NCBI GenBank assembly: GCA_964559135.1
Contig: CAZLGG010000005.1
Coordinates: 11,609-75,608 of the forward strand
Length of the DNA stretch: 64,000 nt
From: an uncultured Planctomycetia bacterium
Lineage (GTDB): Bacteria > Planctomycetota > GCA-002687715 > DRQF01
Direction of reading: 5' to 3'
Part shown: piece after piece, positions 32,766 through 62,339 of the stretch
How positions within the stretch are numbered: the stretch's first letter is position 1
Layout: each line of letters begins with the position of its first letter
Made by a program: the position numbers and the translations under genes
Notes under the pieces: model-generated
The model's database searches: none
Seen by the model: only the letters and a program-made list of their open reading frames with translations
Told to the model about the DNA's origin: nothing

Positions 32766-32860
32766 GGTCTTCGGCAACTGGCTGCCTTTCCGCCGGAACA
32801 GCGGGGAAGGCCCTTTAGTTTTGCGCCCCACCCTTTCGAGTGGTTTGCCCTTTCGGACCC
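32766..32860 (-). ncRNA. c-di-GMP-I (GEMM) riboswitch aptamer
   Basis: Minus strand GGGCAAACCACTC-GAAA-GGGTGGGGCGCAAAACT...GGCAGCCAGTTGCCGAAG matches the GEMM consensus (GNRA-capped P2, CGCAAA junction). P1 GGTC/GACC; G at the Vc2 G20-equivalent position. Confidence 0.9.
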
Positions 32861-44526: not shown

Positions 44527-44907
44527 TCAGGTGACGCGGGTTCCGGGAGCGGTCTCGCCCTCCACGGTGAGCGGCCAGACCTTTTCCGTCCCCTTCACCG
44601 CCAACATCATGCCCTGGCTCTCCAAGCCCCGCAGGCGGGCGGGCTTCAGATTTGTGCAGACGACGAGTGTTTTGCCCACGAGCTCCGCGGGGTCCCAGTC
44701 CGCACGGATTCCCGCCAGAATCTGCCTGGGTTTCTCCTCCCCCACGTCGACCTGCATCACCAAGAGGCGGTCCGCGTCCGGGTGAGGACCGGCCTCCACC
44801 ACCCGTCCCGTCTTCAATTCCACCGCCGCGAATTGATCGATCCCGATCCGCGGCGTTCCCTCGTCCTCCCGGCGTTCTTCATCGCCCTTGTCATTCACGT
44901 CATTCAT
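44527..44907 (-). CDS. Stand-alone tRNA-binding OB-fold protein (Trbp111/CsaA/MetG C-terminal-like)
   Basis: HPDADRLL, RQILAGI, NLKPARLRGLESQGMMLA. Confidence 0.88.
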   Translation of the reverse strand: MNDVNDKGDEERREDEGTPRIGIDQFAAVELKTGRVVEAGPHPDADRLLVMQVDVGEEKPRQILAGIRADWDPAELVGKTLVVCTNLKPARLRGLESQGMMLAVKGTEKVWPLTVEGETAPGTRVT

Positions 44908-45038: not shown

Positions 45039-45076
45039 AAAAAAGTGGCGGCCGCCCCCTCATGGGGACGGCCGCC
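45039..45076 (-). terminator. Intrinsic terminator closing the sigma54-driven small transcript
   Basis: Minus strand GGCGGCCGTCCCC-ATGA-GGGGGCGGCCGCC-AC-TTTTTT (13-bp stem). Confidence 0.8.
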
Positions 45077-45242
45077 GGCTGGGTCATTCCTCATCCCGCG
45101 GGACGCCGATCCGGCGAACCGGACCACCGTCACCGCGGAACTCCTCTCTCACGCCGGGACACCGTTTGGGCCCGTGTCGAAGTCCCTGCCACAATCCTTC
45201 GACACCGCTGACCTTCGAATCGGTCCCGCCGACGCGATTCAC
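45039..45242 (-). ncRNA. Candidate ~200-nt small transcript (sRNA, or leaderless 52-aa ORF 45242-45084)
   Basis: Bounded by a sigma54 promoter and an intrinsic terminator, insulated upstream by another terminator; internal hairpins and seven GGA motifs. Confidence 0.5.
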
Positions 45243-45251
45243 GTGTCCTGT

Positions 45252-45269
45252 TTGCAGAGGCCGTGCCAG
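45252..45269 (-). promoter_or_regulatory. Sigma54 (-24/-12) promoter
   Basis: Minus strand CTGGCACGGCCTCTGCAA versus consensus YTGGCACGNNNNTTGCW; exact GG-N10-GC spacing. Confidence 0.72.
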
Positions 45270-45314
45270 CCTGTCGAAATTCCTTTACCCCCTGTCCGAC
45301 AAGCGATTTAAGCG

Positions 45315-45354
45315 AAAACGTGTCGTCGCCGAGGGTGTTTCGGCGACGACACGT
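45315..45354 (-). terminator. Terminator-like hairpin downstream of the 45408-46184 gene
   Basis: Perfect 15-bp stem ACGTGTCGTCGCCGA / TCGGCGACGACACGT with 7-nt loop and short T run on the minus strand. Confidence 0.65.
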
Positions 45355-45407
45355 GTTACGGCATGGAAACGTTTGCACGGGATCCACGGGCACCCCGACC
45401 GCTACGT

Positions 45408-46184
45408 CTATTTCTTGGAGTCCTCGGTCTCATGCTTGTCCTTCTTGACGAGGACCACGGGTTCCTTCTTCAGCTTCTCCCGGCAAAAGACCAGGACCCG
45501 CTGCAATTCCTTGTCGTCCTTCCGGACGGCAGCCGCCTTCTCGAGGGGCACGAGGGCCTCCCCGAAGCGATTGGCCGAAGCCAGACAAACGCCCTGCTCC
45601 CGCTCGCACAGGGCGGCGACATGGGCGGGAAGTTTCTTCGTGGTCACGTTGGAGAACTCGGACGCGGCGGCGTCGAAGCGGCGCATCTTCTTGAGGCGAT
45701 AGGCCTTGACCATGCGGATGAGGGAAGGCTCGTCGAGCTTGCCCTCGAGGCGCGTCATACCGACGACTTCGATCCAAGGCTTGCCCCTGAAGATGCTCTC
45801 CACGCGCCCGGTGATCAGGAATCGGTCGTAGGGCCTGGCGGTGAGGATCGTGTGGGACTCCTTGGTGATTCGATCGATGAACATGTAGGGGTAATCGGCC
45901 CCGTAGGCCTTCTTGCTCCACAGCGGAGCGCTGTCGCTCCAGACGGAGAAGTTGATGTAGTTCTCCTTCTCGAACGGCGTGAAGTAGGGGTTGTCGATGT
46001 TGCCCAGTTGATGGAATTGGACCACGAAACTCACGTCCATGCCCCGGAACGAAGTCGGGTTCTTGAGGATGAGTTCCAGGGGAACGGTCTTTTCCTCGTA
46101 CAGGTCGTCCCACCACCCACCGGTGGCCAACAAGGGCGAACCCAGGCAGAGGAACAGAGCGACGAAAGCGACGGTCTTACGCAT
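45408..46184 (-). CDS. Secreted hypothetical protein (OB-fold-like N-terminal domain, TPR-like C-terminal helices)
   Basis: Signal peptide; ELILKNP..F.G..V...ITGRV pattern; GVCLASANRFGEALVPLEKA TPR-like segment. Confidence 0.65.
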   Translation of the reverse strand: MRKTVAFVALFLCLGSPLLATGGWWDDLYEEKTVPLELILKNPTSFRGMDVSFVVQFHQLGNIDNPYFTPFEKENYINFSVWSDSAPLWSKKAYGADYPYMFIDRITKESHTILTARPYDRFLITGRVESIFRGKPWIEVVGMTRLEGKLDEPSLIRMVKAYRLKKMRRFDAAASEFSNVTTKKLPAHVAALCEREQGVCLASANRFGEALVPLEKAAAVRKDDKELQRVLVFCREKLKKEPVVLVKKDKHETEDSKK

Positions 46185-62120: not shown

Positions 62121-62205
62121 GGAGGGTTGGCAGAGTGGTCGAATGCGGCGGTCTTGAAAACCGTTGTCGCGCGAGCGACCGGGGGTTCGAATCCCTCACC
62201 CTCCG
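62121..62205 (+). tRNA. tRNA-Ser(TGA), CCA not encoded
   Basis: GGAGGGT/ACCCTCC acceptor stem, G73, anticodon loop CT-TGA-AA, long variable arm, GGTTCGAATCC. Confidence 0.96.
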
Positions 62206-62249: not shown

Positions 62250-62339
62250 GGAGAGATGGCAGAGTGGTCGAATGCGCCCGCTTGCTAAGCGGGTGGGGGA
62301 TCACAAGTCCCCCCCCGGGTTCGAATCCCGGTCTCTCCG
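62250..62339 (+). tRNA. tRNA-Ser(GCT), CCA not encoded
   Basis: GGAGAGA/TCTCTCC acceptor stem, G73, CCCGC-TT-GCT-AA-GCGGG, long variable arm, GGTTCGAATCC. Confidence 0.96.

Follow-up and report, generated by a model that had tools for sequence, protein, structure and literature searches.

A candidate sigma-54-dependent structured non-coding RNA gene confined to one uncultured genus of planctomycetes

In a 64,000-nucleotide (nt) stretch of DNA from an uncultured Planctomycetia bacterium, hereafter called the window, one intergenic segment carries a hairpin, a sigma-54-type promoter, some 200 nt of conserved and highly foldable sequence and an intrinsic terminator (Table 1). We consider it fairly probable that the part of this segment running from promoter to terminator is a stand-alone gene for a new, genus-restricted and trans-acting structured non-coding RNA of about 200 nt, whose synthesis would depend on sigma-54 and on one of its activators. 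The window lies on contig C5 of the host genome (G000; 4.26 Mb in 210 contigs, 92% complete), and the comparisons reported below cover the order (23 genomes with the host included, among which G001 is the only congener), a sample of the phylum (151 genomes, again counting the host) and contigs from four DNA runs, one of them named X4. All features of the unit are on the minus strand and lie downstream of a gene for a TPR-like protein, homologues of which occur in 19 of the 23 genomes of the order; beyond the terminator come a gene for a tRNA-binding-domain protein and, after it, a RecN/SMC-like gene. The hairpin, the promoter, a 52-codon open reading frame (ORF) with a GTG start and the strong terminator are all present on the minus strand where a first-pass annotation of the sequence had placed them, but the roles that it gave to some of them had to be revised.

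Table 1. Features of the RNA unit and its two neighbouring genes, in window coordinates
Feature	Position	Strand	Basis or remark
TPR-like protein, 258 aa; upstream neighbour	45408..46184	-	weak TPR_16 match
Conserved block AACGTTTCCATGCCGTAAC, candidate activator (enhancer) site	45355..45373	-	18/19 identical in G001
Upstream hairpin, 15 pairs, -76 to -112 from predicted start	45318..45354	-	terminator scan
Sigma-54-type promoter TGGCACGGCCTCTGCA, i.e. TGGCACGG-CCT-CTGCA (-24 GG/-12 GC)	45253..45268	-	1 mismatch to consensus
Predicted non-coding RNA of about 202-204 nt, from predicted +1 (45242-45240) to end of T-run	45039..45242	-	conservation, fold
52-codon GTG ORF, judged non-coding	45084..45242	-	start lost in G001
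Invariant 5' domain, RNA nt 1-69: 5' stem, hairpin 1 (loop GAUUCGAA), hairpin 2 (9-bp stem, 14-nt G-rich loop)	45172..45240	-	0/13 G000/G001 differences
Long hairpin 3, RNA nt 100-148, most variable part	45093..45141	-	6/13 G000/G001 differences
Intrinsic terminator: hairpin 45076-45047, AC, T6 (45044-45039)	45039..45076	-	terminator scan
tRNA-binding-domain protein, 126 aa, true start ATG 44907; downstream neighbour in G000	44527..44907	-	Pfam tRNA_bind, 2.5e-26

The sigma-54 consensus reads TGGCACG-N4-TTGCW, with GG at -24 and GC at -12. The promoter of the unit departs from it at a single position, in agreement with the near-consensus site claimed earlier, and is the sole match with at most one mismatch in the 64-kb window. 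It begins 49 nt downstream of the upstream hairpin, and counting 12 nt past the C of its -12 GC leads to a predicted start at 45242 (range 45242-45240), which is, as had been proposed, the G of the GTG that opens the 52-codon ORF. No sigma-70-type promoter was predicted between 44400 and 46000. RpoN is encoded on contig C85 of the host (Sigma54_DBD at 1.3e-60), together with 12 strong Sigma54_activat proteins in the genome as a whole. Genome-wide, 30 sites lie within one mismatch of the consensus, and about 12-13 of these, as read from the 90 nt downstream, directly precede a Shine-Dalgarno sequence and an ATG, which argues that the canonical sigma-54 motif is used in this host. One further promoter of this kind, at G000:C11:22136 (+), combines the perfect consensus with a Shine-Dalgarno sequence, an ORF of about 55-60 codons and a terminator, and is a candidate sigma-54-dependent small protein gene.

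The reading as a sigma-54-driven RNA unit is supported by the way in which promoter, body and terminator are conserved as one block while the flanks diverge. An alignment of the homologous intergenic regions, which the first-pass annotation had suggested as a check, shows that the congener keeps both promoter and terminator. Between the upstream hairpin and the promoter only 25 of 49 nt are identical in the two genomes; identity then rises to 15 of 17 in the promoter core, where both changes fall in the spacer and the -24 and -12 blocks are untouched, drops to 5 of 11 in the stretch before the predicted start and returns to 189 of 202 in the RNA body, and past the T-run the two genomes no longer align. 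The RNA differs at 6.4% of its positions; in 2,123 nt of neighbouring DNA, most of which is coding, the figure is 11.6% (binomial P about 0.01). None of the 13 differences in the RNA falls within nt 1-69 (P about 0.004 under an even spread). A third lineage is represented by a low-depth contig of 173 nt from run X4, which can be aligned with 45142-45268 and shows 9 differences there; its similarity breaks off exactly at the upstream edge of the -24 element. The earlier suggestion of an undescribed regulatory RNA under sigma-54 control is thus supported by the conservation of the unit in the congener, and no family in Rfam corresponds to it.

Conservation of this shape bears on two other explanations. 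First, the unit could be a functionless spacer, acquired recently and conserved in appearance because the two genomes are close. Its restriction to one genus and its lack of covariation are what such a spacer would show, but the non-coding DNA right next to it either shows 50% identity or does not align, whereas the unit is 94% identical, above the neighbouring genes, and the conservation fits the boundaries of promoter, start and terminator to the base; we regard this explanation as decidedly unlikely. Second, there might be no independent promoter at all, in which case the approximately 200 nt would represent the 3' untranslated region of the TPR-like gene, read through a weak first hairpin and closed off by the strong terminator, and the sigma-54 match would be either accidental or a minor internal promoter. 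This possibility, which we hold to be unlikely, could draw on the adjacency of the TPR-like gene and the RNA in both genomes, on the missing T-run behind the upstream hairpin of the congener and on the ease with which the motif arises in shuffled DNA (see below). It does not account for the fact that the -24 and -12 blocks stand out as conserved islands from a spacer that is otherwise about 50% identical, that conservation of the body begins at the predicted +1 and not at the hairpin, or that similarity to the X4 contig ends precisely at the -24 element; moreover, other genera possess the TPR-like gene and its terminator with no such extension.

The upstream hairpin itself was described in the first-pass annotation as an upstream terminator. 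It does exist, at 45354-45318, but the relatives, which have a terminator at this place without the RNA unit, show that it belongs to the preceding TPR-like gene, as a 3' hairpin or terminator. In the congener its 5' arm is identical, while the 3' arm carries two changes that keep the pairing only as G-U, and no T-run follows. The terminator at the 3' end of the unit is strong, with 13 pairs, 12 of them G-C, a loop of 4 and then ACTTTTTT; the scan that detected both found 3 sites in 1.6 kb, compared with 1.7 +/- 1.5 in shuffled sequence.

Returning to the RNA, the 204-nt sequence of the host has a predicted fold of -114.9 kcal/mol (z = -5.78), which was matched by none of 200 shuffles, and 146 of 202 nt are paired in it. 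The minimum-free-energy structure contains GUGUCGAAG...CUUCGACAC, a hairpin that had been attributed to the RNA earlier. Seven of the 13 differences between the two genomes fall in pairs of the consensus fold, and all 7 are compatible with pairing (G-U/A-U or C-G/U-G), the other 6 being unpaired. Within the terminator the congener has 3 changes and keeps the pairing in every case; 3 of the 6 differences in hairpin 3 are likewise compatible with pairing (G-U/A-U, C-G/U-G). We therefore regard the structure as unproven, though it is plausible and fits the data. Within the invariant domain, UCGAAGG is a word found at two places. The RNA contains neither a pyrimidine-rich nor an anti-ribosome-site stretch. 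Loop 1 (GAUUCGAA, window 45214-45221, minus strand) contains the self-complementary UUCGAA, which could permit dimerisation by loop-loop contact. Rfam, the search of which had also been proposed, gave no match in the region at the gathering score, and at E up to 10 it returned 12 matches, all of them generic hairpins far below threshold; a search of the host genome for paralogues revealed none beyond chance matches of 12-18 nt.

The coincidence of the predicted start with a GTG had earlier led to the proposal of a leaderless microprotein, and a small protein gene is the next alternative to be weighed. The 52-codon ORF does open at the predicted +1 and stop ahead of the terminator. In the congener, however, its GTG has become GCG with no in-frame substitute start inside the transcript, and the changes within it are 7 non-synonymous against 1 synonymous, from which we conclude that the ORF is, on comparison of the two genomes, not a protein gene. 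A Pfam search with the 52-aa translation found no match, and in a six-frame search of the 23 genomes a credible peptide was found only in the host and the congener, apart from one match with E = 0.009; outside the genus no credible homologue is seen. A second possible reading frame deserves mention. Inside the RNA, at window 45133-45150 on the minus strand, a GAGAGAGGAG motif stands 7 nt before a GTG (ATG in the congener) and forms a well-formed translation start. In both genomes the ORF that opens there (GTG 45133, 7 nt after GAGGAG) has retained a start codon and the Shine-Dalgarno-like motif, and its changes divide into 5 synonymous and 5 non-synonymous, but it crosses the terminator, meeting no stop ahead of the T-run, and the two genomes continue it with unrelated sequence. 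In either frame, a small protein gene appears to us very unlikely.

The distribution of the unit is narrow. By BLAST the region was found in 2 of 41 genomes, the host and its congener. A covariance model built from the RNAs of these two gave matches in 3 of the 23 genomes of the order, the third being a 23-bit match in G018 that we rejected as chance because it lies inside a 716-aa ORF; in the phylum sample, where stricter filters were applied, it matched 1 genome in 151, the host itself. Exact scans with 22-23-mers, by which only close relatives are detectable, yielded one metagenome contig (L027) and one genome-contig record (L028), both with an RNA letter-identical to that of the congener and hence no added diversity; the same kind of scan, with the same reach, gave no match among viral contigs, and blastn gave none in phage and plasmid collections. 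In other genera of the family the tRNA_bind gene comes immediately after the TPR-like gene and that gene's terminator, and a sigma-54 motif downstream of the TPR homologue is present at 2 of 20 loci, again those of the host and the congener. Because the other genera run from TPR directly into tRNA_bind, the RNA unit is to be read, by comparison of these loci, as a genus-specific insertion.

The same loci speak to the idea that the unit is a cis-acting leader or attenuator of the tRNA_bind-recN genes downstream. In the host, where the unit lies 132 nt upstream of tRNA_bind and points in the same direction, the arrangement would permit it. In the congener, by contrast, the tRNA_bind orthologue is 4.7 kb from the RNA, and this interval is occupied by a 556-aa gene in convergent orientation and by an ORF of 906 aa; as the unit faces a convergent gene there, it is not a leader in that genome. 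Relatives also carry the tRNA_bind-recN pair without the unit, the terminator is strong and conserved, and the Rfam search of the region gave no riboswitch match, so that we consider a leader extremely unlikely. The unit is independent of the downstream gene; it has a promoter and a terminator of its own and holds no conserved ORF. An extension of the tRNA_bind ORF to 186 aa, which would overlap the stop of the 52-codon ORF as ATGA, was rejected as spurious because the orthologue of the congener is likewise 126 aa long. The 4.7 kb in question (L030:422-5123, corresponding to G001:C242:17022-21722) are absent from the host and lie between the RNA terminator and tRNA_bind, with one end abutting the T-run of the RNA; the 556-aa protein has a weak match to the C-terminal domain of squalene-hopene cyclase, and the 906-aa ORF has no Pfam match.

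How might such an RNA act? The first-pass annotation counted seven GGA motifs and considered a sponge for CsrA. The seven motifs are there, and the RNA resembles the CsrB, RsmY and RsmZ sponges in being structured and G-rich with several GGA triplets. Unlike in those sponges, GGA is not enriched (the count of 7 compares with 5.0 +/- 1.9 after mononucleotide shuffling, and 21% of the shuffled sequences reach it), none of the seven is contained entirely in a loop of the predicted hairpins, and the congener has lost 2 of them. CsrA (PF02599) was detected in 0 of the 23 genomes of the order, the host's own included, in a search for which E. coli, B. subtilis and T. maritima served as positive controls. 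With CsrA found in none of these genomes and GGA not enriched, the sponge proposal fails. Elsewhere in the class Planctomycetia CsrA does occur, according to PMC12316311.

Another possibility is that the RNA is a decoy or scaffold for some other protein, in which case its dense structure would display repeated motifs to a partner other than CsrA or Hfq, or would self-associate through the UUCGAA of loop 1. Its 146 paired nucleotides leave no long single-stranded seed, the repeated UCGAAGG and the palindromic loop 1 lie in the invariant domain, and a scan for base-pairing targets gave no favoured site, all of which such a role would accommodate. Yet no candidate partner protein has come to light, CsrA and Hfq being found in none of the 23 genomes of the order, and the RNA neither is enriched in GGA nor repeats a hairpin module in the manner of CsrB or RsmZ; we judge this possibility to be rather unlikely. 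In the target scan just mentioned, a truncated 5' domain was co-folded with 3,957 crudely called translation-start regions, with one reversed decoy for comparison. At -12 kcal/mol or below, the real RNA gave 87 hits against 12 for the reversed decoy, but the usage of seeds is partly an artefact of the truncation and we do not treat these counts as evidence. The start regions of activator genes and of rpoN ranked no better than 426 of 3,957.

Sigma-54 promoters are expected, on our reading, to be served by an activator bound further upstream, some 80-150 nt from the start, and a candidate for such a site is the conserved block AACGTTTCCATGCCGTAAC, which lies at -113 to -131 from the predicted start amid an otherwise diverged spacer. 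Within it, the word ACGTTTC occupies 45372-45366, 104 nt upstream of the T of the -24 element. When a genome-wide set of 224 sigma-54-like sites (at most 2 mismatches) was examined, ACGTTTC was found within 200 nt upstream of 7, in all 7 cases at a distance of 84-123 nt, while its reverse orientation occurred 5 times, spread over 25-165 nt. In an unbiased count of 7-mers in the zone from -80 to -130, AACGTTT came first (P = 8e-6) and ACGTTTC second (P = 2e-5). Four of the 7 sites bearing ACGTTTC are within predicted coding DNA. The three intergenic cases are the unit described here, a second unit at C66:18489 and a promoter on contig C110 that comes right after a gene for an FHA-GAF-AAA+-HTH activator. 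The CCTGTC direct repeat noted by the first-pass annotation upstream of the promoter is real (GACAGG on the minus strand at 45296-45291 and 45275-45270, with 21-nt spacing), but it is not conserved in the congener and was rejected as an activator site for that reason.

The second intergenic unit (L033:1090-1240, corresponding to G000:C66:18489-18640, plus strand) begins with the sigma-54-like promoter TGGTACGGGCGTTGCG, which has 2 mismatches, and continues into about 105 nt of predicted structured RNA and a 14-bp terminator; ACGTTTC stands 100 nt upstream. It is 87% identical in the congener, with the promoter identical and the flanks diverged, and its terminator stem has undergone a compensatory change from G-C to A-U. 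In its predicted architecture and its conservation footprint, then, it is a parallel case to the main unit. A common origin of the two RNAs was considered and dismissed, the best local alignment between them being a 10-mer with a score reached by 8% of shuffles. Another intergenic site of similar make, at G000:C75:1285 (+) and about 250 nt long, consists of a sigma-54-like promoter (2 mismatches), some 230 nt of C/A-rich sequence free of ORFs and an 11-bp terminator.

The activator gene on contig C110 (L032:645-2864, within the segment L032:645-3419, which corresponds to G000:C110:10144-12918) encodes a 739-aa sigma-54 activator with FHA, GAF, AAA+ and HTH_8 domains. Downstream of it, ACGTTTC and a sigma-54-like promoter precede an FHA-domain gene, which is truncated by the end of the contig. 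It is conceivable, if rather doubtful, that the main RNA and the C66 unit belong to a small set of planctomycete riboregulators which operate with neither Hfq nor CsrA and have one activator in common, acting through an ACGTTTC enhancer about 100 nt above the -24 element. That activator would perhaps be the FHA-GAF-AAA+ protein of C110, whose own downstream sigma-54 promoter carries the word, and the tightly folded main RNA would work by loop-loop (kissing) contacts or by self-association through UUCGAA, and not by a linear seed.

Our preferred reading, in which the unit is a stand-alone gene for a trans-acting RNA, can be put as a sequence of events. The elements in the sequence, the selective way in which they are conserved, the absence of a coding signal and the unit's independence of its downstream neighbour are observed; transcription, its start, the activator site and pairing in trans are inferred. 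Polymerase carrying sigma-54 would bind the -24/-12 promoter at 45268-45253 and await activation by one of the roughly 12 enhancer-binding proteins whose genes lie elsewhere in the genome; the probable binding site of this protein is the conserved block some 115-130 nt upstream. Transcription would then start at about 45242-45240 and end at the intrinsic terminator at 45076-45039, and the RNA so formed would act in trans without Hfq or CsrA. The likeliest mode of action would be pairing with one or more messenger RNAs through the invariant 5' domain, in which the loops of hairpins 1 and 2 and the segment joining these hairpins would make the contacts. The signal sensed by the activator would in this manner be turned into post-transcriptional control.

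A number of observations weigh against this reading and explain why we advance it with some reserve. With respect to the promoter, when the window was shuffled 100 times, at least one match of equal quality arose in 18 cases (mean 0.24), and the motif alone is therefore weak proof; by extrapolation, about half of the 30 near-consensus matches in the genome could be chance. None of the 12 strong activator genes is on contig C5, and the enrichment of ACGTTTC and AACGTTT upstream of sigma-54-like sites fails a Bonferroni correction over 16,384 words, which makes the enhancer word statistically insecure. With respect to the RNA, the fold of the congener's version reaches a z of only -2.58, three substitutions break two pairs in hairpin 3 when placed on the host's own fold, and a compensatory double change is found in none of the 71 consensus pairs; the comparison as a whole draws on two full sequences about 6% apart and the one partial sequence from X4. 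With respect to the mode of action, Hfq (PF17209) was found in 0 of the 23 genomes of the order in a search whose positive controls were recovered, the co-fold scan of the 3,957 start regions showed no favoured seed or target position, and few stretches of the RNA are accessible, the longest being the 8-nt loop with UUCGAA and the 14-nt G-rich loop.

The design that we propose is, to judge by its predicted elements, a known one. The Qrr RNAs are encoded by short genes with their own sigma-54 promoter, an activator (LuxO and others) and an intrinsic terminator, and are most conserved in their 5' region. At qrr1 of Vibrio, sigma-54 acts together with two enhancer-binding proteins, according to PMC10162802. 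The present unit is like Qrr in being a short RNA gene with a sigma-54 promoter of its own, a predicted dependence on an activator, an intrinsic terminator and a 5' region that is the most conserved; it differs in having no Rfam match, in its roughly doubled length and much denser structure, and in that its order shows no Hfq in 23 genomes, no activator gene is adjacent and there are no paralogous copies. In Enterobacteriaceae, GlmY and GlmZ are described as structured small RNAs of about 200 nt with sigma-54 promoters, which use GlrR, and with upstream activator sites, GlmY being a protein decoy and not a pairing RNA (PMC3045617, PMC4152352, PMC7073468). Our RNA is like these two in its length of about 200 nt, its predicted structure and its sigma-54 promoter, and is unlike them in that it has no Rfam match, that no overlapping sigma-70 promoter is predicted and that it comes from a different phylum. 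Its sequence is unrelated to Qrr and to GlmY/GlmZ alike and is, as far as the collections searched indicate, confined to one uncultured genus.

To our knowledge, the regulatory RNAs of Planctomycetota have hardly been studied. Table 1 of a 2022 review (PMC9029176) lists 8 annotated small RNAs for the PVC group as against 345 for Proteobacteria. The order to which the host belongs appears to lack both of the classical partners of small RNAs, Hfq and CsrA, and for this reason a clean unit running from a sigma-54 promoter to a terminator, with boundaries exact to the base, would offer a concrete handle on signal-dependent RNA regulation in their absence. It would also help to ask what the many sigma-54 activators of the host control.

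A few further observations concern other parts of the material. In the spacer between the TPR-like and tRNA_bind genes of G003 (L014), two arms of about 38 nt each form a long and nearly perfect inverted repeat, which may be a small mobile or palindromic element. Elsewhere in the window, Rfam recognises the aptamer of a c-di-GMP-I-GGC riboswitch at 32769-32858 on the minus strand (62.3 bits against a gathering score of 59) and two tRNA genes on the plus strand, at 62121-62205 and 62250-62339.

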